Shown: piece by piece, positions 16,112 through 64,000 of the stretch | Layout of the letters: each line of letters opens with the position of its first letter | How positions within the stretch are numbered: the first letter of the stretch is position 1 | Assembly (NCBI GenBank): GCA_964016885.1 | Contig: OZ024764.1 | Span: 9,672,001 to 9,736,000 of the forward strand | Origin: Eledone cirrhosa | Taxonomy: Eukaryota | Direction of reading: 5' to 3' | DNA: 64,000 nucleotides | Notes under the pieces: model-generated | What the model saw: only the letters and a program-made list of their open reading frames with translations | Told to the model about the DNA's origin: nothing | The model's database searches: none | Translations under genes and position numbers: made by a program

Positions 16112-19100
16112 TATATGGAGGCACATGGCTTAGTGGTTAGAGCATTGGCCTTGCAATCGAAAGGTTGTGAGTTCAATTCTCAGACCGGGTGATGTGTTGT
16201 TTCCTTGAGCAAGACACTTTATTTCACGTTGCTCTAGTTTACTCAGCTGTAGAAATGAGATGATAGGGACTGGGGTCCCTATCATTCCACTGTAAAGTGG
16301 TCGTGGAGGTGCCACGGCAAAAAAGCACCCATTCCACACTGTAAATGAGGTTGGTGTTAGGGAGGGCATCCAGCTGTAGAAATCAAGCCAGAGTCAGTTC
16401 CCGTCCCACCCTTGCAAGCAGGGAAAAGCAGACGTAAAATGAAATGATGATGATGATATATATTATATGTGTGAATGATGTAATTAAAAGACAGTGTGAC
16501 TCACCCCTCTGTCTGTAATTTCAGCTCTCTCTATCTTCCAGGACAAATTTTCAACCTCTGCCTCCAACTGGGCCTGTTGATATTCAAACTAGGGAGAGAG
16601 AGAGATATAGATAGATAGATATATATGTAGTGGGATAGAGAGGGAGAGAGAGTAGGAGATATAGTGAGATATATATATAGAGAGTAGGAGATATAGTGAG
16701 ATATATATAGAGAGAGTAGGAGATATAGTGAGATATATATATAGAGAGAGTAGGAGATATAGTGAGATATATATATAGAGAGAGTAGGAGATATAGTGAG
16801 ATATATATAGAGAGAGTAGGAGATATGGTGAGATATATATAGAGAGAGTAGGAGATATGGTGAGATATATATAGAGAGAGTAGGAGATATGGTGAGATAT
16901 ATATAGAGAGAGTAGGAGATAAGGTGAGATATATATAGAGAGAGTAGGAGATATGGTGAGATATATATAGAGAGAGTAGGAGATATGGTGAGATATATAT
17001 AGAGAGAGTAGGAGATATGGTGAGATATATATAGAGAGAGTAGGAGATATGGTGAGATATATATAGAGAGAGTAGGAGATATGGTGAGATATATATAGAG
17101 AGAGTAGGAGATATGGTGAGATATATATAGAGAGAGTAGGAGATATGGTGAGATATATATAGAGAGAGTAGGAGATATAGTGAGATATATATAGAGAGAG
17201 TAGGAGATATGGTGAGATATATATAGAGAGAGAGAGTAGGAGATATGGTGAGATATATATAGAGAGAGTAGGAGATATAGTGAGATATATATATAGAGAG
17301 AGTAGGAGATATATATATAGAGAGAGAGTAGGAGATATAGTGAGATATATATAGAGAGAGAGAGTAGGAGATATAGTGAGATATATATAGAGAGAGTAGG
17401 AGATATGGTGAGATATATATAGAGAGAGTAGGAGATATGGTGAGATATATATAGAGAGAGTAGGAGATAGAGATATATATAGAGAGAGTAGGAGATATGG
17501 TGAGATATATATAGAGAGAGTAGGAGATATGGTGTGATATATATAGAGAGAGTAGGAGATATAGTGAGATATATATAGAGAGAGTAGGAGATATGGTGAG
17601 ATATATATAGAGAGAGTAGGAGATATGGTGAGATATATATAGAGAGAGTAGGAGATATGGTGAGATATATATAGAGAGAGTAGGAGATATGGTGAGATAT
17701 ATATAGAGAGAGTAGGAGATATGGTGAGATATATATAGAGAGAGTAGGAGATATGGTGAGATATATATAGAGAGAGTAGGAGATATGGTGAGATATATAT
17801 AGAGAGAGTAGGAGATATGGTGAGATATATATAGAGAGAGTAGGAGATATGGTGAGATATATATAGAGAGAGTAGGAGATATGGTGAGATATATATAGAG
17901 AGAGTAGGAGATATGGTGAGATATATATAGAGAGAGTAGGAGATATGGTGAGATATATATAGAGAGAGTAGGAGATATGGTGAGATATATATAGAGAGAG
18001 TAGGAGATATGGTGAGATATATATAGAGAGAGTAGGAGATATAGTGAGATATATATATAGAGAGAGTAGGAGATATATATAGAGAGAGAGAGTAGGAGAT
18101 ATAGTGAGATATATATAGAGAGAGAGAGTAGGAGATATAGTGAGATATATATAGAGAGAGTAGGAGATATGGTGAGATATATATAGAGAGAGTAGGAGAT
18201 ATGGTGAGATATATATAGAGAGAGTAGGAGATATGGTGAGATATATATATATAGAGAGAGAGAGAGTAGGAGATATGGTCAGAGGAGTTGTAGTGAGAGA
18301 GAGAGAGAGAAATAATTGTTTCTACTATTGGCACAAGGCCAGCAATTACCCAGCGTATTACTGGTACTTTGTTTTATCAATCCCTTAAGGATGAAAGGCA
18401 AAGTTAACCTCGGCAGATTTGAACTCAGAATGGCCAGGGCCGTGTTTATAAAGGGCCGTAACTCTATGCCTCAAAGCATGGCGTCCGACTCTCTACCGAT
18501 ACTGCCAATCCACATAATAATCGTTTCTACTTTTGACACAAGGCCAGAAATTACCCCAGTACATTACTGGTACTTTATTTTATCGACCCCATAAGGATGA
18601 AAGGCAACGTAAAGGGACGTAACTCTATGCCACAGAGCATATTGTCAAGTGCTCTACTGATCCTGCTGCCAATCCACCGCCATTGGTACAATAATAATAA
18701 TAATAATTGTTTCTACTTTTGGCACAAGGGGCCAGCAATTACCCCAGTACATTACTGGTACTTTATTTTATCGACCCCGTAAGGATGAAAGGCAAAGTTA
18801 ACCTCGGCTGGATTTGAACTCAGACCGCAAAGGGCCATAACTCTATACTGCAAAGCTTGGCGTCTGACTTTCTACCGATTCTGCTAATAATGATTTCTTT
18901 ATTAACCACAAGGGTTTACATAAAGTAGACATTAAGGACAGTGCAGGACAATGCAGGACGGTACAAATGGGCATTTCTGCGTGTAAAAAACAAAAACAGA
19001 GGATGTAACAAAAATAACAATGAAAATAACAATGAAAAATTCCCCAATAGGGGGGAGACTTCGGAGGGACATTTGTGGAGAAAGCCCAGTAAAAAGCCAC

Positions 19101-21128
19101 AATGACCCTGACCACCAAGGCAAGTGCCCTCTCCCAGTTTTCTACCTTTAATTTACAGATATATGCTCAGAGTAGGCCCATTCACTCGGGCCATACTTGC
19201 CTCTCTCACCCATCTTTCAACAAAATGCTGGGAAGAGAGCACCTCCCTCTCTACCCTGATTTTCCTTTTCAAATGAAATTTGAAAAAGTCAATCAGGGCA
19301 TCACCGAAGAGGTAAGTGCTCGTCTTCAGCCCTTTCAAACGTGTCCACCATACTATCTCTTTCACCATGGCCACCAGGCAGATAAAAACTGCCTGCCCTT
19401 CCCGGCTAAAGGAGGAGGGCGGGGCAATCCTCACGATGGACTCAGCTGATAGTCGGATCCGTTCTACACGCGACAGCAGGTGTTCGACATAAACCCACAA
19501 GTCAGCAATGCTCGGACACTGGACGAGTGCGTGCAGGACGGTTTCGTCGCCCTGCGCACATCTCGGACATGCCCGGCTGACGGCACCTCCATGCCTGTAG
19601 AGTTTATCCCGAACTGGCAAAGCTGCTCGGTAGCACTGCCAGGCCAGAGATTTCTGGAAGTTGTCCATAGGCCCTGGCCCGAAAGTTCTTCCGAAGAGAT
19701 TGGCTAGTTGATTTTCGTCGACGCCTAGAGTTTCCCCAAGTATGTCGTCGCTCTTCCCCTCCACTAATCCTCTATAGAACGCCGAGGTGGAGTTTCCACC
19801 GATCACATTGCCCGATTGGTCGAGGGCTGTGAGCGCCTGAAGACATTCCAGTCTCCAGGCGCTCCCTCTCGGTCTTCGCTTGACCCAGGACTGCAGCTCC
19901 GTCAAGGAAACGAGCTGGGGAAAAACGCGTCTAGCAAACGGCGACCACACCTGATCACCGTCGAGGAAGAGGTGGAGATGTCGTAGCCTGAGCGCGTGCC
20001 TGCGCATCATCAGCCACGGCATGCCCAGCCCTCCACGTAGCGGGTGTTGACAACAGATGGACCGCCTGACCATCGGAGCACGTCCCTTCCACAAAAAGCG
20101 AAAGAGCAAACGCTCCAGCGCAGTCAGGCGAGGCTTAGGACAAGGTACGACGGTCAGGCGGTAGCAGATGACAGACGCGATGTACGCGTTAGCCACCTCC
20201 GCTCGACCTTTCAGGGATAGCTTCCTCTCCACCCATTTCTGGGTGAGAGAAGCCACCCTGCTCGTCACCTCGTCCCAGTTTTTGTCCGTCTGGAGGTCCA
20301 GACCGAACCAGACCCCTAACCGATTCTGCTAATAATAATAATAATTGTTTCTACTTTTGACACAAGGGGCCAGAAATTACCCAGTGTATTACTGGTACTT
20401 TATTTTGGCACAAGGGGCCAACAATTACCCCAGTGCATTACTGGTACTTTATTTTATCGACCCCGTAAGGATGAAAGGCAAAGTTAACCTCGGCTGGATT
20501 TGAACTCAGACCGTAAAGGGCCATAACTCTATACTGCAAAGCTTGGCGTCTGACTTTCTACCGATTCTGCTAATAATAATAATAATTGTTTCTACTTTTG
20601 GCACAAGGGGCCAGCAATTACCCCAGTGCATTACTGGTACTTTATTTTGGCACAAGGGGCCAGCAATTACCCCAGTGCATTACTGGTACTTTATTTTGGC
20701 ACAAGGGGCCAGCAATTACCCCAGTGCATTACTGGTACTTTATTTTGGCACAAGGGGCCAGCAATTACCCCAGTGCATTACTGGTACTTTATTTTGGCAC
20801 AAGGGGCCAGCAATTACCCCAGTGTATTACTGGTACTTTATTTTATCGACCCCGTAAGGATGAAAGGCAAAGTTAACCTCGGCGGGATTCGAACTCAGAA
20901 TAATAATAATAATAATAATGTCACTCACCAGCTCCTTTCTTGCCCCTTTATCCATATAATAGGCGTACGGGTAGGTGTACTGCAAAGTGTACCGACACTG
21001 TAACAACAACAACAACAACAGTATTAGAGTATGTAACTATCCAGAGAAGAGATTCATCATCATCATCATCATCATTTAAGGTTCATCTTCCACGCTAGCA
21101 TGGGTTGGACAGGTTTGTCCCATTTAGA

Positions 21129-21646: not shown

Positions 21647-24600
21647 ATATATCTACATGTGTATATATATGTATATATGTATGTGTCTATATGTACATGT
21701 GTGTGTACACATATATATATATAAATGTGTGTGTGCGTACATATGTATATATGTACATATGTATATACAAGTATGTATGTACAGATATATATGTATGTTG
21801 TTTTTCAGCGTAACTAGTAACATATAACCCCGAGACACTTGTCAACAGTTTCAGGTAGTTATAAAGGTGTTAACAAGATACCTTCTTCAACAGAGCTGCA
21901 GCATCAAGCAGATATTGCCAATCTATCCAAGTTCCAGAGTTGTTCATCACTTTATCTTGAATTCTACTTTTGATGCTGGTTAGGGTCTGCTCTTCCAATT
22001 TCAAGCTTTTCGCGTGGTTATCCCACTGTGGCAGAGACATGAGAGAACGGACACAGATATATAGATACCATATAAATATAGATTTAGCAAGCATCGCATT
22101 TCGGCGGGTAGAAAAGGCGAAACGAAACGCAAAAATCAGAAATAATTGTTTCTACTTTAGGCACAAGGCCAGCAATTACCCAGTACATTACTGGTACTTT
22201 ATTTTATCGACCCTGTAAGGATGAAAGGCAAAGTTAACCTCGGCGGGATTTGAACTCAGAATGTAAAGGGACGTAACTATGCTAGAAAGCATGGCGTCCC
22301 ACCCTCTACCGATACTGCCAATTCACAGAAATAATTGTTTCTACTTTTGGCACAAGGTCAGGAATGATCCCAGTGTATTACTGGTACTTTATTTCATCGA
22401 CCCCCGTAAGGATGAAAGGCAAAGTTAACCTCGGCAGGATTTGAACTCAGACCATAAAGGGCCGTAACTCTTTGCTGCAAAGCAAGGCGTCCGACTCTCT
22501 ACTGATTCAGCCTTAACCGATTCTGCTAATTCACAGAAATAATGATGGCAAGCGCTCCATAGTTAAAAAACCAGAGCTAAACAATATGTTAAGAGGCCAT
22601 ACAAAACTGAAATAGTGGTCAAGAAAGCATCAACCACCTAAGCCAAAAATCAAATCAAGCTAAACAGGTCAAAACAAAATAAATGATAAAAAAAAATGAT
22701 GAAAAAAAAAAAATCAATGATAAAAAAGGCCATATCACGCTGTAAACACTGGTTCTCGTCCGATCACCAAAGTTAAGCAACGTCAAGCCTAGTTAGTACT
22801 TAGATGGGTGACCGCTTGGGAACCCTAGGTGCCGTAAGCATTTACTGATATATACCATATATATAACCAGAGTTTATATGGTTCGTTGATTATTCAACGA
22901 ATACAACTTTACAATAGATTAGAAGCATTCGACAGAAAGTTTTCTGGAGTATCTATAATGTTATTCAAAATATTAATAAATGAAAAATATTCTCATAATC
23001 AAAATATATATTTTATTATACATATTTCAAAGGTACTATGGTGTTTAAGTACGTTTTCATCAGACAAAATATGAGAGATTGAATATGCAACATACCGCTA
23101 CGGTTTTGATTATTCAATTCCAATAGTGGTAGTATTGGAATTGAATAATCAAAACCATAATGGTGTGTCGTATATCCAATCTCTCGTATATTTTGTCTGA
23201 TGAAAACATACTTAATCACCGTACTTATACACTGTACTTAAAAAGGTTTCAAAAGAAATGTGCCATTGTGCCAGGCCCAAGGCAGGCCGGCAGGCCAAAG
23301 TGCAAATCTCACCGTTACATATTGTTTGTGGCGTTCCTTCGGAGTTCAAGCAGCAAGAGAGAGATTTCTCAAATCAAAGTGGGAATTTTTCCCTCAGGGC
23401 GCGTAGAGATACATTCTCTTCTACTGGCACTGATTGGCTGAGCTGAGCCAAATCACGCACAGAGAATGTATGTAAGCCCGCGGAATGTAGGTCACTACAC
23501 TCATATATTTTGTCTGATGAAAACGTACTGAAACACCATTGTATAAAACACCATTTGTATAAAATCAATATATATATATACAGAGAGACTATATATATAT
23601 ATATACACACACACTGCATGTGTGCGTATATATATATATATATATATAAAGAAAACAGGAAACAGAAAAAAGGGGTAGATAGGAAAGTTGTTGCTGTATA
23701 AGAGATGTTTAAGAGTTAAAATATATCTGAGAACAAGGAAAACCAACTGACCCTTTCAAAGTAGAAGAGGTATTTCTTAAGGGCTTCCCTTGCCTGTGCA
23801 TGGGCAGATTCATTAGCGATATTAGGGTTTTCTTTATAGCGACTGCATTCATAATATTCACTACCATGGGTTTTCCAATCTGTAACAGAAAAATGGGATT
23901 AACTTGGAACATAATTAAATTTAGGGGTCACATTTATGTACGTTTTTGGGGGGTCGTAATGATAGGGACCCTTACAAGGTTGTCTGCGAAAATACAATAG
24001 TATATATAGAGTAATGTAAATGTTATGTGAGGTAAAGCCTTTACTGTGAAAATACAATAGTATATATAGAGTAATGTAAATGTAATGTGAGATATTATGT
24101 GAGGTAAAGCCTTTACTGTGACAATACAATAGTATATATAGAGTAATGTAAATGTTATGTGAGATATTATGTGAGGTAAAGCCTTTACTGTGAAAATACA
24201 ATAGTATATATAGAGTAATGTAAATGTTATGTGAGATATTATGTGTGGTAAAGCCTTTACTGTGCCAATACAATAGTATATATAGAGTAATGTAAATGTT
24301 ATGTGAGATATTATGTGAGGTAAAGCCTTTACTGTGACAATACAATAGTATATATAGAGTAATGTAAATGTTATGTGAGATATTATGTGAGGTAAAGCCT
24401 TTACTGTGAAAATACAATAGTATATATAGAGTAATGTAAATGTTATGTGAGATATTATGTGAGGTAAAGCCTTTACTGTGAAAATACAATAGTATATATA
24501 GAGTAATGTAAATGCTATGTGAGATATTATGTGAGGTAAAGCCTTTACTGTGAAAATACAATAGTATATATAGAGTAATGTAAATGTTATGTGAGATATT

Positions 24601-27600
24601 ATGTGAGGTAAAGCCTTTACTGTGAAAATACAATAGTATATATAGAGTAATGTAAATGTTATGTGAGATATTATGTGAGGTAAAGCCTTTACTGTGAAAA
24701 TACAATAGTATATATAGAGTAATGTAAATGTTATGTGAGATATTATGTGAGGTAAAGCCTTTACTGTGAAAATACAATAGTATATATAGAGTAATGTAAA
24801 TATTATGTGAGATATTATGTGAGGTAAAGCCTTTACTGTGAAAATACAATAGTATATATAGAGTAATGTAAATATTAAAGGTTTAATGATAGGGACCCCA
24901 GTCCTATCATGTTGTCACAGCTCACACCTATGTAGGTTTAGCTGGACTCCGACAAGGTTGTATCTCATAAGAGGTTTCTTGGGTGTTTTAATGATAGGGG
25001 ACCCCAGTCCTATCATGTTATTACTGCTCACACCTGGGGAGGGGGGAAAGTCGATTAAATTGACGCCAGTGCATTACTGGTACTTTATTTTATCGATCCC
25101 GTAAGGATGAAAGGCACGATTGACCTCGGTGGGAATTGAATTCAGAACCTAAAAGGACCTAACTCTATGTCCGATGCTCTACCAATTTAGCTAATCCACT
25201 GCCCTAATAAGAATAATGATAATAATAATATTGAACTTACCTCCTAAACACATCCAGCAAAAATCATGCTTGCATCGTGAACATTGCTGTAGATAAAGAA
25301 TTAGATATATATATATATATATATATGTGGTTTTTTTTGGTTGTAACTTCTCTGTTTTTTAGCCTAGGAAAATATTTATATATATGCCTACGTATATAAT
25401 TACATGCATATATGTATTTATTTTCTTTTATTAATTGAGTTCTTTACACGAGGAATTAATATTGGTTTTGAAATAACTAATTAACCCGCGTGTGTTTTAA
25501 ATTTTACTCTTAATAATTCGGCCGGAGAATTATATTCCCATTTGCCCTTTATAGCATAACTTTCTGCATTTACTGCGGTTATGAGAAGCGGTTCTTATTC
25601 GGGTACAACTTCTGATTTAGCCTAAGAAAGTATCTAGATGCGTGTGTAATTTATACAAGCATATATTTATTTTTTTTATTTTCAATTGAGTTCTTAAACA
25701 CGTTGGATTGATAATGTTTTCAAAAAAACTAATTAACCCGCGTGTATATTATTTTTTTTCCTCATTTCGTGGGTTGTCTCCCCTTCCCGCTTCATGTCGC
25801 TATGATACTTCCTCAGTCAAAAACTGCTGGAATTTCAAATTTGGCGGTCATTCGAGGTGAGAGAGAGCATCTTTACGGATATGATTTTTGACAGCGGTAA
25901 GAAATTGTTTTCTTATATCAATGTTTAATGGGCTTCCACTGATGATTTATAAGTGCCCACCTAAATATATTCTTACATGAATATATATTAGGCTTCTACA
26001 TAAACTGGAAACATTCTCCTAAATTTGTAGAAAACTTATAATGAAACAATTGTTTGGAAAGAGAGATATACTTTAACTTTAATTATATCTCATAAAATAA
26101 TACAACTGGTTTTTCCACATTATTCATATTGTTAGCACCCCAAACACTTAAATTGGGTTTATATTTTAATATAACCTAATGTTTGTTGAGTGAGATGGTT
26201 ACCAGTCAGAGTTTAGCTTTAAACTATCTCTGTTATTGTATTAATTATATATATATATATATATATATAAAAAGCAAAAGAGAAAGGAAAAAACAGTCCA
26301 CGCTGTAATGTGGCTGTGTAGGTAACAAGGTAAAAAGCTCCCAGTTCCACACTGTAAATGTGGTTGGTGTTAGGCAGGGCATCAAACTGTAGAAAACTTG
26401 CCATATACTCCCATATGAGCAAGACACGGTCACCCGACCAACCTTGCCTCAAGTGGGACAACTCCCGTCTAACCCATGCTAGCGTGGAAGATAGACGTTA
26501 AACTATGATGATGATGATGATGATGATACATGTCAGTATTTAAACCCAGGTAAGTGATAATGAGTGACGTAGTGTTCATTTATCAAATAATGTTAGTTAA
26601 GACAGGATTAAATCACCATAATTTTTTACTGCATTATATATATTTACAGTGATGGAAGCCTTGGAGTGGGGAGACCCAAAAAGACCTGGGATGAGGTGAT
26701 AAAAGTCGACCTTACCCAAGTGCACCTCTCAAAGGCGATAATGCAGGACTGTGACCTGTGGCGTCACGCAGTAATACAGTAGACCCGACCCCCCCCCCAC
26801 AAGTACAAGCCAAAGCTGAAGCATATAGACAATATGCCCCCACCCCCTCCCACTGCAAAGTGGTTGTGGAGGTGCCACGACAAAAAAGCACCCAGCCCAC
26901 ACTGTAAAGTGGTCGTGGCGGTGCCACGGCAAAAAAGCACCCAGCACTCACTGTAAATGAGGTTGGTGTTAGGAAGAGCATCCAGCTGTAGAAATCAAGC
27001 CAGAATTCCCGGATGAGCAAGACAAAGTCAGCCGACTTGACACTACTCACAACAGGACAACCCGTCTAACCCATGCTAGCGTGGAATTCTATTATAACGA
27101 AATTCACGGGGTATTATAAAAATTTGTTGGAACGAATCATTCTTTATAACGAGATCGACGTAACACATCAAGCATGAGGCTAGGGATTTTAAAAAATTTC
27201 GTTATAACGAAATTTTACCTGTATACACACACGCACACATCATCATCATCATACATCTGCTTTTCCCTGCTTGCAAGGGTGGCACGGGTCTTATTCAGCA
27301 CAGCACCTCTCCACTTGTCACGGTCCTTCGTCATCTCCTGTGAGCTTCATCGATCTGAGGTCAGCTCTCACCACCTCCGCCCATGATTTTCGTGGTCTTC
27401 CTCTACTGCATCTTCCTTCCACTGGGATTTCTTGGCACTTCTTCACCCAGCGGTCATCTTCCATGCGCATCACATGTCCATACCAACGCAGTCTTGTCTC
27501 CCACACACTACAGTTTATCCCTCTTATACACAGTTTCTCTCTCAACACATCACATGTCCATACCAACGCAGTCTTCTCTCCCACACACTACAGTTTATCC

Positions 27601-28619
27601 CTCTTATACACAGTTTCTCTCTCAACACATCACATGTCCATACCATCGCAGTCTTCTCTCCCACACACTACAGTTTATCCCTCTTATACACAGTTTCTCT
27701 CTCAACACATCACATGTCCATACCAACGCAGTCTTCTCTCCCACACACTACAGTTTATCCCTCTTATACAGTTTCTCTCTCAGCTCATCCATGCTTGGTT
27801 GTTAACGCACATTCACATTGCACATATATATGTATGTGTGTAAACCCTAATACGTACCATATGATTACATCCACCATTTTTCTCTATACAAACATGACAT
27901 CTTGGACACTGAAAAGAAAAGAAAAGAAAATATAGAAAAACTGAAATATATAAAAATAATAATCTTTTTTTTTTATTATTATTATTATTTAGATACTTTG
28001 AATTGTTCTCCTACAAAAGACTGCCTTGCTGGTCACTGTATATATATACCCAGGAAGAAAGTACTGTCTGGTTACGGTCCTTGTTGAGACTGGACAGGAC
28101 TGTAGAAAGTTCCGGTAAGCATAATTGTTTCTACTTTTGGCACAAGGCCAGCAATTACCCCAGTGCATTACTGGTACTTCATTTTATCGACCCCGTAAGG
28201 ATGAAAGGCAAAGTTAACCTCGACGGGATTTGAACTCAGAATGGCAAGGGCCGTAACTCTATACGTCAAAGCATGGCAACCGACCCTCTACCGATACTGC
28301 CAATCTACCGTTCCGGTAAATATAATATTTACTGCATAAATTTTTGATAACAACAACAACAATAATAATAATAATAATACTGATAATGGTTTCTTATATA
28401 GTCTTATATCTTTAGTGTATGTGTAAGAGAGAAAGAGAAATACAGAGATAGAGAGATTATATCCTAAACGGACGGTAGTCCGTTTAGTAATATTGTTGTG
28501 GTCGTGTTTTCGTTGGCAATCGTCTGTTTACGACAGTACAGCGCGGCTCTACTTTATTTAACTGAGATAAAACTTATATGAGCATGAACAGTAGATCATT
28601 ACGCATCTTTTGGCTTAAA

Positions 28620-30372: not shown

Positions 30373-32978
30373 ATCTTTGGTGTGTGCTGAAATGTAATTT
30401 GCCGTCTCAGAGTCATCAGCACATTTAGTTAACCACTTCTTGATGGTATTGCAGTCAGTGGGAGCATGGTATTCTATACCACATCTGAAACTGGAGAGAT
30501 AGAGACATGTCTGTATGTATATATATAAAATAATAATAATAATAATAATTGTTTTTACTTTAGGCACAAGGCCAGCAATTGCCCAGTGCATTACTGGTAC
30601 TTTATTTTATCTACCCCGTAAGGATGAAAGGCAAAGTTAACTTCGACAGGATTTGAACTCAGAATGGCAAGGGCCGTAACTCTATGCGTCAAAGCATGGC
30701 GTCCAACCCTCTACCAATACTGCCAATCCACAATAATAATTGTTTCTTCTTTAGGCACAAGGCCAGCAATTACCCAGTGCATTACTGGTACTTAATTTTA
30801 TCGACCCCGTAAGGATGAAAGGCAAAGTCAACCTCAGCGGGATTTGAACTCAGATCGTAAAGGGACGTAACTATGCTGGAAAGCATGTAAGTATGTATGT
30901 ATACGTACATACACATATGTATACAGACGTACAGTAGTATGTATATATATATATATACATACATGCACACATATATATATATGTACGTATGGGTTTACCG
31001 AACATTTATTATAATGCTCGGTTAGTTTGTAAACCCATATGTACATATATATATGTGTGCATGTATGTATATAGAAACATACTACTGTACGTCTGTATAC
31101 ATGTGTATGTACGTATACATACATACTTACATTTAAGTACCAGCCGTACTAAGAGTGAGAAATGAAATTTCATTTCATTCTTTTCCATTTATATAATAAT
31201 AATAATAATGAAATTATTGTGTACAGTGCTCAGGTGCACTACAAGTCGTCAAAGGTGCATGTATAGTACATAGAATAATATACAAATGTCAGGGAAGTGA
31301 ATAGTGTATGAGTCATGATATACATGTGTGTGTGTGTATGGAGGGGGAACATTAGGTGTAGTGTTGGCGAATTTCAGGAAGCATGGAGGTTTTAAAGGAT
31401 GCAGTGTCTCGACAGCTAACAACTGATGCAGGTAGTTTGTTCCATGGAGGTTTTAAAGGATGCTGTGTCTCGACAGCTAACAACTGATGCAGGTAGTTTG
31501 TTCCATGGAGGTTTTAAAGGATGCAGTGTCTCGACAGCTAACAACTGATGCAGGTAGTTTGAAAGGATGCAGTGTCTCGACAGCTAACAACTGATGCTGG
31601 TAGTTTGTTCCATGGAGGTTTTAAAGGATGCAGTGTCTCGACTGCTAACAACTGATGCAGGTAGTTTGTTCCATGGAAGTTTTAAAGGATGCAGTGTCTC
31701 GACAGCTAACAACTGATGCTGGTAGTTTGTTCCATGGAGGTTTTAAAGGATGCAGTGTCTCGACTGCTAACAACTGATGCAGGTAGTTTGTTCCATGGAG
31801 GTTTTAAAGGATGCAGTGTCTCGACAGCTAACAACTGATGCAGGTAGTTTGTTCCATGGAGGTTTTAAAGGATGCAGTGTCTCGACAGCTAACAACTGAT
31901 GCAGGTAGTTTGTTCCATGGAGGTTTTAAAGGATGCAGTGTCTCGACAGCTAACAACTGATGTAGGTAGTTTGTTCCATGGAGGTTTTAAAGGATGCAGT
32001 GTCTCGACTGCTAACAACTGATGCAGGTAGTTTGTTCCATGGAAGTTTTAAAGGATGCAGTGTCTCGACAGCTAACAACTGATGCTGGTAGTTTGTTCCA
32101 TGGAGGTTTTAAAGGATGCAGTGTCTCGACAGCTAACAACTGATGCAGGTAGTTTGTTCCATGGAGGTTTGAAAGGATGCAGTGTCTCGACAGCTAACAA
32201 CTGATGCTGGTAGTTTGTTCCATGGAGGTTTTAAAGGATGCAGTGTCTCGACTGCTAACAACTGATGCAGGTAGTTTGTTCCATGGAAGTTTTAAAGGAT
32301 GCAGTGTCTTGACAGCTAACAACTGATGCTGGTAGTTTGTTCCATGGAGGTTTTAAAGGATGCAGTGTCTCGACTGCTAACAACTGATGCAGGTAGTTTG
32401 TTCCATGGAGGTTTTAAAGGATGCAGTGTCTCGACAGCTAACAACTGATGCAGGTAGTTTGTTCCATGGAGGTTTTAAAGGATGCAGTGTCTCGACAGCT
32501 AACAACTGATGCAGGTAGTTTGTTCCATGGAGGTTTTAAAGGATGCAGTGTCTCGACAGCTAACAACTGATGTAGGTAGTTTGTTCCATGGAGGTTTTAA
32601 AGGATGCAGTGTCTCGACTGCTAACAACTGATGCAGGTAGTTTGTTCCATGGAAGTTTTAAAGGATGCAGTGTCTCGACAGCTAACAACTGATGCTGGTA
32701 GTTTGTTCCATGGAGGTTTTAAAGGATGCAGTGTCTCGACTGCTAACAACTGATGCAGGTAGTTTGTTCCATGGAGGTTTGAAAGGATGCAGTGTCTCGA
32801 CAGCTAACAACTGATGCAGGTAGTTTGTTCCATGAAGGTTTTAAAGGATGCAGTGTCTCGACAGCTAACAACTGATGCAGGGAGTTTGTTCCATGCTTCA
32901 GCAATTCTGACCGTGAAAAAATGTTTCCGAAAGTCATGGGAGCTGTGCTGTTTTCTGACTTTGTAGGTATGCCCACGC

Positions 32979-33017
<39 letters not shown>

Positions 33018-35862
33018 AAATATAAAACAATCAAATTTTAGCTTAATACATTTAATTGCTGATGATCGTTTCTCCCAGACAACTCTCTGGAATCATCGGA
33101 GAATACACAATGTTTAAACAAGTAATTATAATCGTAGTCTTCGGAATATTCATAAAGATATATTTATATTTTGTATTTCAGCTCTGTAAGACATATGATA
33201 ATTTACATTGAGCTTTTTCTCTTACTGGTAATTGGGTAGTGCTTAATACTACCCTTTCATATTTATAATTATATATAACTCATATACAAGCATAAATATT
33301 ATTATTATATATATATATTATTGAGTAAAATGACAGGAGGTTGGACTGGTGAAATTCCTTCAAAGATTTATTACAAACACTATGCACATTTCAATGATCA
33401 GGTTCCATAAGATCCTGGTGACATCATCAGGTGTTTATTGCATAAAAGTTATATAATAAAGGAATAATGGTAAACATAATCCAAGAGGCTTTATATATTT
33501 CGGAAAAGAGTCAGGACCCCAACAGCTGAGCTCCGGCCGTTCTTGTTATTTATATATATATGTCAATGTGCGTGAACGACCAAGCATAGATGAGTTGAGA
33601 GAGAAACTGGGTATAAGAGGGATAAGTTGTGGTGTGCAGGAGAGAAGACTGAGATGGTGTGGACATGTGATGGAGGAGAGGATGACTGCTGGGTGAAGAA
33701 GTGCCAAGAAATCCCAGTAGAAGGAAGACACAATAGTGAAGACCACGAAAAACATGGACGGAGGCGGTGAGAGCAGACCCCAGATCACTGAAGCTCACGG
33801 AGGAGATGACGAAGGACCGTGACAAGTGGAGAGATGCTGTGCTGAATAGGACCCGTCACACCCTTGCAAGCAGGGAAAAGCAGACGTATGATGATGATGA
33901 TATAGCTTATCACTTCTTGATGGTACTAGGAAGTTCGGAGCTTACCAAAAAGAAGTTTTACATTTGGAACAGTCCACTTAAAAAAAAAAGGGGTGGTGGT
34001 ATCTGCAGTGTGAGGGAACTAGAGATAAAATATATTCAAAAGGCAAAAAAAAAAAAACCGAAGTTCGGAGCTTACCAAAAAGAAGTTTTACATTTGGAAC
34101 AGTCCACTTAAAAAAAAAAGGGGTGGTGGTATCTGCAGTGTGAGGGAACTAGAGATAAAATATATTCAAAAGGCAAAAAAAAAAAAACCGAAGTTCGGAG
34201 CTTACCAAAAGGAAGTTTTACATTTGGAACAGTCCACTTAAAAAAAAAAGGGGTGGTGGTATCTGCAGTGTGAGGGAACTAGAGATAAAATATATTCAAA
34301 AGGCAAAAAAAAAAAAAACCGAAGTTCGGAGCTTCCCAAAAAGAAGTTTTACATTTGGAACAGTCCACTTAAAAAAAAAAGGGGTGGTGGTATCTGCAGT
34401 GTGAGGGAACTAGAGATAAAATATATTCAAAAGGCAAAAAAAAAAAAACCGAAGTTCGGAGCTTACCAAAAGGAAGTTTTACATTTGGAACAGTCCACTT
34501 AAAAAAAAAAGGGGTGGTGGTATCTGCACTGTGAGGGAACTAGAGATAAAATATATTCAAAAGGCAAAAAAAAAAAAACCGAAGTTCGGAGCTTACCAAA
34601 AAGAAGTTTTACATTTGGAACAGTCCACTTAAAAAAAAAAGGGGTGGTGGTATCTGCAGTGTGAGGGAACTAGAGATAAAATATATTCAAAAGGCAAAAA
34701 AAAAGAAAACCGAAGTTCGGAGCTTACCAAAAAGAAGTTTTACATTTGGAACAGTCCACTTTCTTGGCTTGGGGTTGTGGTGCTCTGACTATTACCGGAC
34801 AGTTTGGACCAGGACAAAACCGTAATTGAGGATGGGTCTACAAATAGAAAATATAAACATTTATATATATATATATATATATATATACACCCCAACTCAC
34901 TACCCCTACTCCACCCTCCCACTCCCACCAACACCACCCTTTCTCTATCATCATCATCATCATTCGTTGACTACTGTCGAGATGATGGATCTCAACCTCA
35001 TGCCCCAGAATTCCCTGTCCCCCATCGCTGCCCCCAGGTCCTGTCTACTGATTCCCGTATCCCTAGAGATAACTGTTTCTACTTTAGGCACAAGGCCAGC
35101 AATTACCCAGTGCATTACTGGTACTTTATTTTATCGACCCCGTAAGGATGAAAGGCAAAGTCAACCTCGGCGGGATTTGAACTCAGATCGTAAAGGGACG
35201 TAACTATGCTGGAAAGCATGGCGTCCGACCCTCTACCGATACTGCCAATCCACCGCCCTTCCCTCTATCACCGTATCCCTAGAGATAACGTCAGGGAATG
35301 ACAGCTTCCTACTCCTAGTCAGGCTGGAGTCAGGGTTCCAGAGCAAGAGAGCGGATATGATTTCATTGCTGGCACGGTGACAGTCCTCATAACGCCTCTC
35401 CTGAGGATGAGGTAAGAGAATTCTACACGACCCTTCGCACAGTTGTTGAGCAAGTACCCTTACACAACTTTCTTATCATCGCTGGAGACCTCAACGCTCA
35501 ACTTGGCCCGGATGAAGTAAGGTTCACATACAATAGGGTTACTAACAACAGCTCAACAGCTCAAACAACAACTTCATGAAGACCAGAGGCCAGCTTTGGA
35601 GCCTTTCTCTATAAAGTTATGTTGGTACCACAACATCCAGTCCAAACTAATGAGGTCGTGTAGGTGTCACGACAAAAAAAGCTCCCAGTCCACACTGTAA
35701 ATGTGTGGTTGGTGTTAGGAAGGGTATCCAGCCGTAGAAAACCTGCCAGACAGTCCTATACGAGCGAGACACGGTCACCCGACCAATCTTGCCTCAAGTG
35801 GGACAATTCCCGTCTAACCCATGCTAGCGTGGAAGATAGACGTTAAACGATGATGATGATGA

Positions 35863-35898
<36 letters not shown>

Positions 35899-38800
35899 TA
35901 AGGCGGGTAAAATTCCCGAGATCCATGGACGAGTTCTCTCCAGTTGTCTCTGTCCCTCATTATCGCTGCCATGTCCTGCGTCGCCAACAGACCAGTGTCT
36001 GTCCTTAGGGCATCAACATACGTTAACCTTGGTCTTCCTCTTCTATATAATAATTGGAGGAATGCAGGACTGTGTCTTGAATATATTTTTTTCTGAACAC
36101 ATTAAAATAAGTTGGATTACTTTGAATAAATAATTGTTTCTACTTTAGGCACAAGGCCAGCAATTATCCAGTGCATTACTGGTACTTTATTTTACCGACC
36201 CCGTAAGGATGAAAGGCAAAGTGAACCTCGGCGGGATTTGAACTCAGATCGTAAAGGGACGTAACTATGCTGGAAAGCATGGCGTCCGACTCTCTACTGA
36301 TACTGCCAATCCACCGCCCTAATAATAAGTCTGCATGCCGAAACCCGGGAATGAACAGGGGACCTTTAGATCTTCAGTCTAACGCTCTCCCAACTGAGCT
36401 ATTTCGGCTGTACATTACTTTGAATAAATAATGAATGAATATTACATAATTTATCTACTAAATTTCGTAGCTGTTGATTAAACAAATATTTTTATATATA
36501 ATCTATTTTAAGATTCACTTCTTTAAAATTTTCAAATGTCAATACTTCCAGTTAGCGTCCGTTATATCATAATACTTATCACATCACTTATATCAACATT
36601 CATATATTTGTATCGTTATATAAGGTTTATATTTCCGTCACTAATTTTCTCCTTTTTCGTTTTCATTACATTTCACCGTAATGCAGTTTAAATATAATGT
36701 GAAGGCACATGGCTTAGTGGTTAGAGCTTAGTGGCTTGCAATCGAAAGGTTGTGAGTTCAATTCTCAGACCGGGTGATGTGTTGTTTCCTTGAGCAAGAT
36801 ACTTTACTTCACATTGCTCCAGTTTACTCAGCTGTAGAAATGAGATGATAGGGACTGGGGTCCCTATCATTCCACTGCAAAGTGGTTGTGGAGGTGCCAC
36901 GGCAAAAAAGCACCCAGCACTCACTGTAAATGAGGTTGGTGTTAGGAAGGGCATCCAACTGTAGAAATCAAGCCAGAATCAGTTCCCGTATGAGCAAGAC
37001 AAGGTCAGCCGACCAGACACTGCCCACAACAGGACAACCCGTCTAACCCATGCTAGCGTGGAAGAAAGGACGTAGAACGGTGATGATATAATATTGTCTT
37101 TGTTAAATGTATCATGGATTATTTTACTGATTACAGAAGACAGTGTAACACAGTCTCTCTTCAATTTCTGTGCATATTGTCAACTATGATTCTATTTGAC
37201 ATATCATATCTCCATATATTTGCATATAATGGAGGCACATGGCTTAGTGGTTAGAGCATTGGCCTTGCAATCGAAAGGTTGTGAGTTCAATTCTCAGACC
37301 GGGTGATGTGTTGTTTCCTTGAGCAAGACACTTTATTTCACATTGCTCCAGTTTACTCAGCTGTAGAAATGAGATGATAGGGACTGGGGTCCCTATCATT
37401 CCACTGTAAAGTGGTCGTGGAGGTGCCACGGCAAAAAAGCACCCAGCACTCACTGTAAATGAGGTTGGAGTTAGGAAGGGCATCCAGCTGTAGAAATCAA
37501 GCCAGAATCAGTTCCCGTCCCACCCTTGCAAGCAGGGAAAAAGCGGACGTAAAATGAAATGATGATGATGATGATGATGATAATATCAATATCCACACTA
37601 CACATGCTAGCAGGAAACCACACGAAGGGTGGTTTTTTTTCTGCTAGCAACAAATAATTGTTTCTACTTTTGGCACACACACGGCCAGCAATTACCCCAG
37701 TGCATTACTGGTACTTTATTTTATCGACCCCGTAAGGATGAAAGGCAAAGTTAAACTACCATAATTGTTTATTGCATTATATATATTTCTGTGACATTTT
37801 AGCTAGTATGCTCGGACACTTACCTTGACATGGTCCATAAATGTAAGTCTCATGTATCGGTCTCGAATGTCTGGTTGGCTGAGTACCTCACAGATGATAT
37901 TCTCCGGCACAAGGACATTACACTCCGCTGCCATGCACTGGATTCCTGGTGGCGGTGGCGGTGGTGTCGATGGTAGTGGTGGTGGTGGTGGTGGTGGTGG
38001 TGATGGTGGTGGTGGTGGTGGTAGTGGTGAAGAAGAAGACATTATTAGAGACAGAGAGAGAGAGATGGAGTAACAGAGTTGATAGAGGGAAGGAGGGAGG
38101 GAGGGAGAAAGAAGGAAGGAAGGAAGGAAGGAAGGAAGGAAAAAGAAAGAAAGAAATAGAGGAAGGAAAGGAAGAAAAGAAAGTGAGTAAAAAGACAACA
38201 AAAAAGGTGAGCACATACTTGTGGTTACTCCTTGGTAGATTTGTACTTGGAAATATCTATCCCACAATATTATTAGAGACAGAGAGAGAGATGGAGTAAC
38301 AGAGTTGATAGAGGGAAGGAGGGAGGGAGGGAGGGAGAAGGAAGGAAGGAAAAAGAAAGAAAGAAGGAAGGAAGGAAAAAGAAAGAAAGAAAGTGAGTAA
38401 AAAGACAACAAAAAAGGTGAGCACATACTTGTGGTTACTCCTTGGTAGATTTGTACTTGGAAATATCTATCCCACAATATTATTAGAGACAGAGAGAGAG
38501 ATGGAGTAACAGAGTTGATAGAGGGAAGGAGGGAGGGAGAAAGAAGGAAGGAAGGAAAAAGAAAGAAAGGAAGGAAGGAAAAAGAAAGAAGGAAGGAAAA
38601 AGAAAGAAAGAAGGAAGGAAGGAAGGAAAAAGAAAGAAAGAAATAGAGGAAGGAAAGGAAGAAAAGAAAGTGAGTAAAAAGACAACAAAAAAGGTGAGCA
38701 CATACTTGTGGTTACTCCTTGGTAGATTTGTACTTGGAAATATCTATCCCACAATATTATTAGAGACAGAGAGAGAGATGGAGTAACAGAGTTGATAGAG

Positions 38801-41800
38801 GGAAGGAGGGAGGGAGGGGGAAGGAAGGAAAAAGAAAGAAAGAAGGAAGGAAGGAAAAAGAAAGAAAGAAAGTGAGTAAAAAGACAACAAAAAAGGTGAG
38901 CACATACTTGTGGTTACTCCTTGGTAGATTTGTACTTGGAAATATCTATCCCACAATATTATTAGAGACAGAGAGAGAGATGGAGTAACAGAGTTGATAG
39001 AGGGAAGGAGGGAGGGAGGGAGGGAGAAGGAAGGAAGGAAGGAAAAAGAAAGAAAGAAATAGAGGAAGGAAAGGAAGAAAAGAAAGTGAGTAAAAAGACA
39101 ACAAAAAAGGTGAGCACATACTTGTGGTTACTCCTTGGTAGATTTGTACTTGGAAATATCTATCCCACAATATTATTAGAGACAGAGAGAGAGATGGAGT
39201 AACAGAGTTGATAGAGGGAGGGAGGGAGGGAGAAGGAAGGAAGGAAGGAAAAAGAAAGAAAGAAATAGAGGAAGGAAAGGAAGAAAAGAAAGTGAGTAAA
39301 AAGACAACAAAAAAGGTGAGCACATACTTGTGGTTACTCCTTGGTAGATTTGTACTTGGAAATATCTATCCCACAATATTATTAGAGACAGAGAGAGAGA
39401 TGGAGTAACAGAGTTGATAGAGGGAGGGAGGGAGGGAGAAGGAAGGAAGGAAGGAAGGAAGGAAGGAAAAAGAAAGAAAGAAATAGAGGAAGGAAAGGAA
39501 GAAAAGAAAGTGAGTAAAAAGACAACAAAAAAGGTGAGCACATACTTGTGGTTACTCCTTGGTAGATTTGTACTTGGAAATATCTATCCCACAATATTGA
39601 CAGAGAGAGAGATGGAGTAACAGAGTTGATAGAGGGAGGGAGGGAGGGAGAAAGAAGGAAGGAAGGAAAAAGAAAGAAAGAAGGAAGGAAGGAAGGAAAA
39701 AGAAAGAAAGAAATAGAGGAAGGAAAGGAAGAAAAGAAAGTGAGTAAAAAGACAACAAAAAAGGTGAGCACATACTTGTGGTTACTCCTTGGTAGATTTG
39801 TACTTGGAAATATCTATCCCACAATATTATTAGAGACAGAGAGAGAGATGGAGTAACAGAGTTGATAGAGGGAGGGAGGGAGGGAGGGAGGGAGAAGGAA
39901 GGAAGGAAGGAAAAAGAAAGAAAGAAATAGAGGAAGGAAAGGAAGAAAAGAAAGTGAGTAAAAAGACAACAAAAAAGGTGAGCACATACTTGTGGTTACT
40001 CCTTGGTAGATTTGTACTTGGAAATATCTATCCCACAATATTGACAGAGAGAGAGATGGAGTAACAGAGTTGATAGAGGGAGGGAGGGAGGGAGAAAGAA
40101 GGAAGGAAGGAAAAAGAAAGAAAGAAGGAAGGAAGGAAGGAAAAAGAAAGAAAGAAATAGAGGAAGGAAAGGAAGAAAAGAAAGTGAGTAAAAAGACAAC
40201 AAAAAAGGTGAGCACATACTTGTGGTTACTCCTTGGTAGATTTGTACTTGGAAATATCTATCCCACAATATTGACAGAGAGAGAGATGGAGTAACAGAGT
40301 TGATAGAGGGAGGGAGGGAGGGAGAAAGAAGGAAGGAAGGAAAAAGAAAGAAAGAAGGAAGGAAGGAAGGAAAAAGAAAGAAAGAAATAGAGGAAGGAAA
40401 GGAAGAAAAGAAAGTGAGTAAAAAGACAACAAAAAAGGTGAGCACATACTTGTGGTTACTCCTTGGTAGATTTGTATTTGGAAATATCTATCCCACAATA
40501 TTATTAGAGACAGAGAGAGAGATGGAGTAACAGAGTTGATAGAGGGAGGGAGGGAGGGAGGGAGGGAGAAGGAAGGAAGGAAGGAAAAAGAAAGAAAGAA
40601 ATAGAGGAAGGAAAGGAAGAAAAGAAAGTGAGTAAAAAGACAACAAAAAAGGTGAGCACATACTTGTGGTTACTCCTTGGTAGATTTGTACTTGGAAATA
40701 TCTATCCCAGCATTCCTTGCAGAAGAGATGTCCACAGGTGAGACATTCCATCCTGTCTCTGGCATACCAGACGGTACAGACAGTACAGACTAGACTGCTA
40801 GCCCCAGGGTCCTGGAATTAGAGAGGGGGTAGGGGTTAGGTGAGGTGACAAGACAGTACAGACTAGACTGCTAGCCCCAGGGTCCTGGAATTAGAGAGGG
40901 GGTAGGGGTTAGGTGAGGTGACAAGACAGTACAGACTAGACTGCTAGCCCCAGGGTCCTGGAATTAGAGAGGGGGTAGGGGTTAGGTGAGGTGACAAGAC
41001 AGTACAGACTAGACTGCTAGCCCCAGGGTCCTGGAATTAGAGAGGGGGTAGGGGTTAGGTGAGGTGACAAGACAGTACAGACTAGGTTGTTAGCCCCAGG
41101 GTCCTGGAATTAGAGAGGGGGTAGGGGTTAGGTGAGGTGACAAGACAGTACAGACTAGGTTGTTAGCCCCAGGGTCCTGGAATTAGAGAGGGGGTAGGGG
41201 TTAGGTGAGGTGACAAGACAGTACAGACTAGACTGCTAGCCCCAGGGTCCTGGAATTAGAGAGAGGGCAGGAGTTAGGTGAGGTGACAAGACAGTACAGA
41301 CTAGGCTGCTAGCCCCAGGGTCCTGGAATTAGAGAGAGGGGGTAGGGATTAGCTGAGGTCAGAGGTTCTCAAACTTTTGGGGCCACTGCTCCCCTCACGG
41401 CCACATAATACCCTCAGTACCCACCAACCCTATTTCCAGACACAGCAATACAGAAGACCCGACTTCCCACGGGTTTCAAGCTGAAGCTGAAGCATATAGA
41501 CAATATGCCCCCACACCCTCCCACTGCAAAGTGGACGTGTAGGTGCCCCAGAAAAAAAGCACCCAGCCCTCACTGTAAATGAGGTTGGTGTTAGGAAGGG
41601 CATCCAGCTGTAGAAATCAAGCCAGAATCAGTTCCCGTATGATCAAGACAAGGTCAGCTGACTGGACACTGCCCACAACAGGACAACTCGTCTAACCCAT
41701 GCTAGCGTGCAAGAACGGACGTAAAACGGTGATGATGATGATGAAATATATATATATATATATATATTTCATCATCCTCATCACTGTTTTACGTCCTTTC

Positions 41801-42648
41801 CTTTTTTTATAGATATATAAATATATATTTATATATCTATAAAAAAAGGAAAGGAAAAAAAAGGGGGGAAAAGTCCACGCTGTAATGTGGCCATGTAGGT
41901 AACATGGTAAACGGCTCCCAGCCCACACTGTAAACGTGGTTGCTGTTAGGAAGGGCATCCAGCTGTAGAAAACCTGCCAGATACAGTCCTATACGAGCGG
42001 GACACGGTCACCCGACCAATGTTACCTCAAGTGGGACAATTCCTGCCTAACCCATGCTAGCGTGGAAGATAGACGTTAAATGATGATGATGATGGTGATG
42101 ATGATGATGATGAGAGAGAGAAAGAGAGAGACCTACCTGAAACTTCACTGAAGGCATAATATTGGACTCCACCAGTAATCCTGCAGGGTTTTCATTGTGC
42201 CTGGGGAGGAAAGAAAGAAAAATATTATCATCATCATCATCACACTACCAGACGGGGGTGGATTAGCAGAATTGGTACTATACTACACAGTATATATATA
42301 TATATATATATATATTGTTATACTTAGGGAGGGTCATGTTGCCAATAAGAAACACACGCACCAGTTGCTTTCACTTCAATTTATTATAATAAATTTATAA
42401 TAAATTTATAAATTTCTGGTTGGTTGGTTGGTTCCACAACCAGATAGTTGTTTATATATTGTCATAGTTCTTTCGTCACACACTCTGTGACCTCTTCAGT
42501 GACTGGGGATTCCTTTCTTTGTTTCTGTGCCTCTCCTTTGTTCTGTCCTACGCCATTTTGTTGGCAACATGACCCTCCCTAAGTATAACAATATCGGTTT
42601 CAACACACGATTTCAGATAAAGAATCTTGCTAAACAAATTCAGAAACG

Positions 42649-52879: not shown

Positions 52880-53827
52880 ATGGAGAGAAATGAAGCAAGC
52901 ATGCTCCGTTAGATGTGCAATGTTAATGTGCGTGAACGACCAAGCATGGATGAGTTGAGAGAGGAACTGTGTATAAGAGGGATAAGTTCTGGTGTGCAGG
53001 AGAGAAGACTGAGATGGTATGGACATGTGATGTGTTGAGAGAGAAACTGTGTATAAGAGGGATAAACTGTAGTGTGTGGGAGAGAAGACTGCGTTGGTAT
53101 GGACATGTGATGTGTTGAGAGAGAAACTGTGTATAAGAGGGATAAGTTCTGGTGTGTGGGAGAGAAGACTGAGATGGTATGGACATGTGATGTGTTGAGA
53201 GAGAAACTGTGTATAAGAGGGATAGGTTGCGGTGTGTGGGAGAGAAGACTGAGATGGTATGGACATGTGATGTGTTGAGAGAGAAACTGTGTATAAGAGG
53301 GATAGGTTGCGGTGTGTGGGAGAGAAGACTGAGATGGTATGGACATGTGATGTGTTGAGAGAGAAACTGTGTATAAGAGGGATAGGTTGCGGTGTGTGGG
53401 AGAGAAGACTGAGATGGTATGGACATGTGATGTGTTGAGAGAGAAACTGTGTATAAGAGGGATAGGTTGTGGTGTGTGGGAGAGAAGACTGAGATGGTAT
53501 GGACATGTGATGTGTTGAGAGAGAAACTGTGTATAAGAGGGATAGGTTGCGGTGTGTGGGAGAGAAGACTGAGATGGTATGGACATGTGATGTGTTGAGA
53601 GAGAAACTGTGTATAAGAGGGATAGGTTGCGGTGTGTGGGAGAGAAGACTGAGATGGTATGGACATGTGATGTGTTGAGAGAGAAACTGTGTATAAGAGG
53701 GATAGGTTGCGGTGTGTGGGAGAGAAGACTGAGATGGTATGGACATGTGATGCACATGGAGGATGACCGCTGGGTAAAGAAGTGCCAAGAAATCCCAGTG
53801 GAAGGAAAACGAAGTAGAGGAAGACCA
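52880..53827 (+). mobile_element. RTE LINE fragment with 80-bp array (about 10 copies)
   Basis: Reverse complement of the unit at 14625-15341; [26 protein letters not shown]. Confidence 0.88.
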
Positions 53828-63276: not shown

Positions 63277-63690
63277 TAACCCTTTAGCATTCACATTACT
63301 CTATATATACTATTGTATTTTCACAGTAAAGGCTTTACCTCACATAATATCTCACATAACATTTACATTACTCTATATATACTATTGTATTTTCACAGTA
63401 AAGGCTTTACCTCACATAATATCTCACATAACATTTACATTACTCTATATATACTATTGTATTTTCACAGTAAAGGCTTTACCTCACATAATATCTCGCA
63501 TAACATTTACATTACTCTATATATACTATTGTATTTTCACAGTAAAGGTTTTACCTCACATAATATCTCACATAACATTTACATTACTCTATATATACTA
63601 TTGTATTGTCACAGTAAAGGCTTTACCTCCCATAATATCTCACATAACATTTACATTACTCTATATATACTATTGTATTGTCACAGTAAA
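63277..63690 (+). repeat. 72-bp array (5-6 copies) beginning with TTAACCCTTTAGCATT (piggyBac-like terminus)
   Basis: Reverse complement of the 23987-24886 array; TTAA followed by CCCTTT at the left end. Confidence 0.85.
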
Positions 63691-64000
63691 GCATAAGGCA
63701 TTTGTTAACTAGATCAGACACCATGATATGCGGCTAACCCTTTGCCCTATTATATATATATAATACAAGGCTTTTGTCACAGAGGGAGAGTTTACAAGAC
63801 CAGGCATCATGAAAAGGGGCTAACCCCTTGCCCTATAAAAAAAGATTATATATATATATATATATAAGACCCGGGTTTAATCGGGGGGTAACACAGTTAG
63901 TAAGGTACTCAATACATTAGTAGAGTGTAAAAATCAAGTTTAATATAGAAATGGCTTCTACAGGACTAGAACTGTTTCATTCAAAGGAAATCATCAGGAA

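Follow-up and report, generated by a model that had tools for sequence, protein, structure and literature searches.

The 64-kb stretch of DNA analysed here (hereafter the window) contains a gene for an Ariadne-type RBR ligase, whose coding span on the minus strand (14202 to 51971) comprises 14 coding exons and 13 GT-AG introns and encodes 483 amino acids (aa) without an internal stop. When compared to the human proteins, two conserved exons place the gene nearer to ARIH2 (E = 3e-20 and 2e-18) than to ARIH1 (E = 3e-6 and 7e-10); the exon that starts RING1 is ambiguous by itself (ARIH1, 7e-5; ARIH2, 5e-4). A HMMER search with this 49-aa exon returned matches where a word-indexed protein search gave none, and one of the two closest proteins, with 76% over the RING1 exon, carries the name ARIH2 of Sepia pharaonis, which makes a cephalopod the likely source; the dispersed repeats of the window also look octopod-like. 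Three exons of the minus strand matter most for what follows: coding exon 3 (42137 to 42200; 64 nt, with its donor at 42137), coding exon 4, the RING1 exon (40664 to 40811; 148 nt, measured from the innermost acceptor to the innermost donor), and coding exon 5 (37824 to 37945; 122 nt).

Other features of the gene are recorded here in their own right, all on the minus strand. A CAC-type trinucleotide tract (37946 to 38030) takes the place of the usual pyrimidine tract at the exon-5 acceptor, and both closest proteins (P0001 and P0002) continue into intron 4. The exon-7 acceptor has two AGs 6 nt apart (30484 to 30490), of which our model uses the outer one, in agreement with two extra residues of the homologue. 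Intron 5 holds a tRNA-Phe(GAA) gene on the ARIH2 strand (36336 to 36408), and intron 12 appears, by eye, to hold a retroelement-like coding fragment (~19150 to 20320).

Tandem copies of splice sites at exon 4

Upstream of exon 4 lies an array of eight 73-bp units on the minus strand (40778 to 41359), for which TRF reports a period of 73, 7.9 copies, and 96% matches. Each unit consists of the 39-nt end of intron 3, with a branch-like motif, a pyrimidine tract, and the AG, followed by the first 34 nt of exon 4. What remains of exon 4 follows the innermost copy only. A motif search over the window found the AG kept in all eight copies, at exact 73-bp steps, with the first exonic bases at 41322, 41249, 41176, 41103, 41030, 40957, 40884, and 40811. 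This array is a tandem duplication, beyond chance. A preliminary description of the locus, made from the sequence alone, had announced seven extra acceptors upstream of the RING1 exon, which is what these positions give once the innermost one is set aside; its unit length of 73 bp also agrees with TRF, and its 33 exonic nt become 34 on counting.

The units differ in a patterned manner. The four innermost ones (40811 to 41030) are identical letter by letter from −39 to +34, the two at 41103 and 41176 have three exonic changes in common, the three changes at 41249 are intronic, and the outermost one (41322) is the most diverged, with five substitutions and a 2-nt insertion. Changes at +14 to +18 mark the units at 41322, 41176, and 41103 and would identify them even in short reads. 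Of the two branch motifs proposed earlier, CCTAAC is well placed, with its A at −25 and an AG-free stretch of 49 nt. The other, CTAAT, lies at −7, which is nearer to the AG than the usual spacing of a branch point. In the outermost unit, the branch-like motifs are different ones, with the A at −27 and −37. Each unit also carries, in the RNA sense, one GGGG run, located between the identical acceptors. The plus-strand segment that adjoins the outermost unit (41360 to 41385) is unique, with one match in the window; we see in it a resemblance to a hAT-type DNA transposon, namely to one of its terminal inverted repeats, and a search of the window for the partner end found none.

The other end of the exon is duplicated as well. 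An array of twelve donor copies (38040 to 40709, minus strand) has a spacing of 202 to 277 bp, and its unit comprises the last ~45 nt of exon 4, the GT donor, and ~160 to 230 nt of TC-rich intron. GT is kept in all 12 copies found by motif, and the unit exceeds the 10- to 160-bp range of the boundary repeats described as mirages (see below). The RING1 exon is thus bracketed by copies of its own ends, eight acceptors and twelve donors, as the preliminary description had proposed. In each donor unit there are also a long TC tract and a CTAAT motif, with the first AG 38 nt ahead of the donor copy, so that the unit is a possible frameshifting micro-exon; no separate form of this kind was seen in the spliced contigs over 40620 to 40900.

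A second donor array is found in the same gene, two exons beyond the double-bracketed exon 4. It contains seven copies of the end of exon 6 in a 130-bp unit (33930 to 34761, minus strand), six of which carry GT (five of them extra) and one GG. Each of these units also holds T-tracts, with AGs at 31, 57, and 73 nt ahead of the donor copy, and so looks like a ready-made cryptic micro-exon. The last copy lacks an 84-nt spacer, which weakly resembles the acceptor and body of exon 6 itself (P = 0.05); the reading of the 130-bp unit as a decayed whole copy of exon 6 is borderline (P = 0.05; 2000 shuffles).

The window as a whole is rich in tandem arrays. Fifty copies of a 32-bp unit (16645 to 18256, minus strand) have no AG in the sense strand and form a 1.6-kb AG-free stretch that ends ~55 nt before the exon-13 acceptor (16588). 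Arrays of 80-bp units (14625 to 15342, 27468 to 27793, and 52945 to 53752) and of 72-bp units (24023 to 24877 and 63288 to 63691) occur at several places, which suggests that dispersed repeats carry arrays along or that arrays expand anew within such repeats.

Only the innermost acceptor gives an open reading frame

The 483-aa frame is open with exon 4 taken as 40811 to 40664, that is, from the innermost acceptor. All seven upstream acceptors lead to a stop 28 codons past exon 3, at codon 29, yielding a product of 148 aa, which bears out the earlier statement that the innermost acceptor alone is productive. The accompanying explanation, a shift of frame followed by a TAG in the next unit, needs an amendment: the TAG is met in all seven cases, whereas for the acceptors three and six units out (41030 and 41249) the downstream frame is restored overall and the TAG is met nonetheless. 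On the donor side, use of any of the 11 downstream donors would cut the protein short at 227 aa.

Micro-exons inside the acceptor unit were considered and rejected, since the unit has no good donor: its GT sites match 2 to 5 of 9 consensus positions, as compared to 6 to 8 of 9 for the 13 real donors. A masking of the extra acceptors by RNA structure was likewise rejected, as all 100 shuffles fold better than the array (z = +3.65). As noted before, the unit is indeed rich in G runs on its plus strand, with a G4Hunter-type score of up to 1.88 per 25 nt that ranks in the top 0.2% of the 25-mers of the window, with seven two-tetrad matches and no canonical three-tetrad match. This strand, however, is the template. 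In the RNA sense (minus strand), the score is at most 0.64, without any two- or three-tetrad match, so the proposed G-quadruplex potential does not carry over to the RNA, and an RNA G-quadruplex element was discarded as a candidate. At most, the G-rich template strand could favor instability of the array at the DNA level.

Spliced RNA joins the innermost acceptor to the innermost donor

We examined contigs from 4 of the 23 sequencing runs listed, none of which is recorded as RNA, over the region 40620 to 40900, which includes two of the eight acceptors and one of the twelve donors. The only run of RNA origin among those used, X3, comes from a second sample with the same species label; its kind is not recorded, and we take it as RNA-derived because its contigs are spliced. 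A first X3 contig (716 nt, depth 47) follows 40663 to 40814 with 0 differences and runs on into the end of exon 3. No break occurs in it where the repeated 34 nt end, the point at which molecules spliced to an upstream acceptor would branch off. A second contig (depth 57) covers 40663 to 40692 and then continues into the start of exon 5, i.e., it joins the donor at 40664 to exon 5. The loose ends of these contigs are letter-equal to the end of exon 3 and the start of exon 5. The dominant X3 transcript thus runs from exon 3 to the innermost acceptor, through the whole of exon 4, to the innermost donor, and the acceptor previously named as productive is the one found in the spliced contigs.

Such contigs are built from words of 31 letters and lose rare forms. 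The repeated segment, at 37 letters (the 34 nt plus a shared CAG), is longer than these words, and what makes the path unambiguous is solely that no branch leading into intronic letters of a unit survives. No upstream-acceptor form was seen in the X3 contigs, from which low-level use would be lost. X3 has no cover over 40815 to 40900, which does not count as evidence, given that the filter omits records. The donor side, which is not perfectly clean, does show a branch of this sort: a third contig (32 nt, depth 9) extends past the exon by 3 nt of intron 4, which may reflect retention or the use of a downstream donor. The 32-mer of this branch occurs 11 times in the window, and therefore ~1% unspliced RNA per copy could yield a depth of 9.

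The acceptor array is present in sequencing data; no adjacent unit in a relative

An assembly artefact would explain the array away, and the contigs do leave some room for it: none spans the whole stretch or carries 31 letters on each side of the tandem junction. However, X1, a DNA-like run of the species that is possibly the assembly's own sample, gave 12 contigs on the region, and five among the 8 listed cross the tandem junction at 40851/40852, with a short side of 14 to 15 letters. X1 also carries the C>T change at 40868 that marks the units at 41103 and 41176, the 2-nt insertion of the outermost unit, and, in one contig, the flank 41360 to 41385 joined to that unit. Together with the patterned differences between units, these observations largely refute the artefact as regards the existence of the array, and we consider it exceedingly improbable. 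The array exists in sequencing data, the X1 DNA contigs carrying both the junction and the unit variants. The copy number of eight rests on the assembly; the X1 contigs leave the unique middle of exon 4 uncovered, which makes depth uninformative.

Exon 4 is also present in a DNA contig from a relative, X14, with 21 differences over 173 nt. The match goes on for only 15 nt on the intronic side of the acceptor, after which come 75 letters without a fit in the stretch. An adjacent acceptor unit is not present in X14, and a second relative, X13, gave no contigs. The 78% relative P0001 reads through a 39-codon intron 3 that contains no exon copy. Conservation of an unproductive element was thus found neither in X14 nor in P0001, and with no adjacent unit in the former and no exon copy in intron 3 of the latter, the acceptor array is likely lineage-specific and young.

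Placement of arrays relative to splice sites

We considered whether, in this lineage, splice sites are preferred places of origin for boundary arrays, owing to a mutational bias linked to transcription or splicing (for example R-loops and a G-rich template strand), the arrays being neutral thereafter. What speaks for such a bias is that arrays cover 3 of the 27 splice sites of the gene, all three within 7.5 kb and two of them at one exon, and that the plus strand of the acceptor unit belongs to the top 0.2% of window 25-mers for G4 propensity. In the placement null, each array was collapsed to one unit and put at random. A first enrichment test gave 2 of 17 arrays (P = 0.24), its complexity filter having dropped the ~220-bp donor array. 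A post hoc rerun used a hand-edited list, in which the donor array and two low-complexity arrays were added, two 61-bp rows merged, and two nested rows dropped; here, 3 of the 17 counted arrays in the gene span one of the 27 splice sites versus 1.3 expected (P = 0.13), and when only the 7 arrays whose seed occurs nowhere else in the window are counted, 3 cover a splice site versus 1.06 expected (P = 0.073), which leans away from random placement. None of the three nulls thus gives significance, the data come from one gene only, and exon-internal arrays would be purged while unique sequence is concentrated near exons, two effects that the nulls model only in part. These counts are compatible with chance placement at splice sites as well as with a mild bias, and we regard the preferential origin as rather unlikely.

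Discussion

The eight 73-bp copies of the ARIH2 intron-3/exon-4 boundary, of which the innermost acceptor is the one seen spliced, probably represent a recent and selectively neutral mirage minisatellite. As it presents itself here, the array has head-to-tail units that span an exon boundary, a unit size of 73 bp, AG and GT kept, dominant splicing that is undisturbed in the X3 contigs, and homogeneous inner units with the outer unit apart.

A plausible course of events can be outlined. A 73-bp segment across the acceptor would have been duplicated, its breakpoint on the exonic side falling within a short 9-bp tandem repeat that the exon contains; slippage or unequal exchange would then have multiplied the copies, so that the inner units became homogeneous and the outer one stayed diverged. 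In the sequence, the remainder of the exon stands behind the innermost copy only, and the unit has no good donor. Splicing in the dominant RNA proceeds from exon 3 to the innermost acceptor and from the innermost donor to exon 5. Because four acceptors are identical from −39 to +34, the choice among them can only depend on position or on exonic letters past +34. Position would decide if the nearest acceptor and donor pair across the exon, a distance of 148 nt as opposed to 221 to 659 nt for the upstream acceptors. The GGGG run of each unit might additionally aid the innermost choice, by analogy with what is reported for CBS (see below). Nonsense-mediated decay is an established pathway that removes transcripts with early stops. 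Rare use of an upstream acceptor is predicted to produce early stops and to feed this pathway, so that the array would cost little.

Published reports describe several comparable systems. In amphioxus, mirages duplicate the 5′ or 3′ boundary of an exon in the manner of a minisatellite, with units of 10 to 160 bp; many carry AG/GT, leave splicing unaffected, and are length-unstable, with boundary units that are not homogenised (PMC3087553). They are reported in Adh3 and in the globins BflGb6 and BflGb9 (PMC3087553), and in TnC and PGBD5 (PMC3902484). The ARIH2 array resembles them, as far as those descriptions go, in its tandem intron/exon boundary units, its intact sites, and its homogeneous inner units with the outer one apart (as in the globin mirage). 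It differs in coming from a probable cephalopod and in that one exon has arrays at both ends, with a third array two exons on. Length polymorphism and somatic instability are features described for Adh3, whereas the ARIH2 array is known from one assembly and short contigs.

In humans, CBS 844ins68 is a ~70-bp duplication of an acceptor junction with stop codons, in which the distal site is chosen, and the G runs between its two identical sites are reported to promote this choice (PMC1802585, PMC4479818, PMC11017215; the allele is also cited in PMC2427040). Here too, an acceptor copy with stops is accompanied by use of the downstream site, and each ARIH2 unit has one GGGG; CBS 844ins68, however, is a polymorphic allele of two copies in these accounts, as opposed to the eight copies in ARIH2. 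The 37-bp VNTR in intron 7 of F7 provides 5 to 9 tandem donors, of which only the exon-adjacent one is used, and mutagenesis showed the pseudo-sites to be functional but outcompeted (PMC1557585). It is a direct parallel of the ARIH2 donor array, although, as reported there, on the donor side only and with a short unit. Internal tandem repeats at exon-intron boundaries are furthermore described in human segmental duplications, with 27 curated intron modifications (PMC2812944); those repeats belong to recent paralogs whose protein is often changed, whereas the ARIH2 model is intact and its dominant mRNA unchanged. As the spliced RNA seen uses the copy adjacent to the exon, the ARIH2 array is likely harmless and of the kind described in lancelets and humans.

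The preliminary description had implied a regulatory role, with the extra acceptors feeding decay and the array length tuning ARIH2. Put as a dosage rheostat, this reading holds that regulated, length-dependent use of the extra sites sends ARIH2 mRNA into nonsense-mediated decay or intron retention. Each extra site is an intact consensus copy, each alternative product stops early, and decay would conceal such forms in steady-state RNA; X3 does show the depth-9 branch into intron 4, and an element like the GGGG run found in each unit between identical acceptors is reported to steer the choice in CBS 844ins68. However, the X3 contig is unbroken at the very point where upstream use is expected to branch, the depth-9 signal is within what ~1% unspliced RNA per copy of an 11-fold 32-mer could give, the relative without an adjacent unit argues against a conserved control element, and the F7 pseudo-donors and amphioxus mirages are silent. 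With the G-quadruplex potential lying outside the RNA as well, the implied role is not supported, and we judge a rheostat improbable. Nothing in the data supports a regulated decay switch, and they remain compatible with one to the extent that rare forms are lost from contigs. A regulated rheostat and a lineage-wide bias both find little support, and we would count it as very improbable that length-variable arrays at both ends of the RING1 exon form a heritable rheostat, in which a higher copy number would send more ARIH2 pre-mRNA into early-stop or intron-retaining forms, and that boundary arrays are preferential in cephalopod genes. If both were true, they would constitute a genome-wide source of expression variation and of new introns. 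For the locus to represent a new control mechanism, use of the extra sites would have to be regulated or to depend on array length.

Returning to the neutral mirage minisatellite, what is new here is a probable first cephalopod case and the bracketing of one exon by arrays on both sides; this double bracket, around an essential exon, is a little unusual. A search by titles and abstract openings, with coverage mainly outside subscription journals, returned no earlier cephalopod case. The locus extends mirage repeats to a probable cephalopod. For those who annotate genomes or map reads, it calls for caution, since the first 34 and last 45 bases of the exon map to 8 and 12 places, respectively. 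It also provides a natural test of splice-site choice, with 8 × 12 possible pairings of near-identical sites around a single exon, the shortest of which appears in the contigs. Use of the shortest pair, even in a 1.3-kb intron, fits a position-based definition of the exon rather than a scan for the first AG from the upstream donor.
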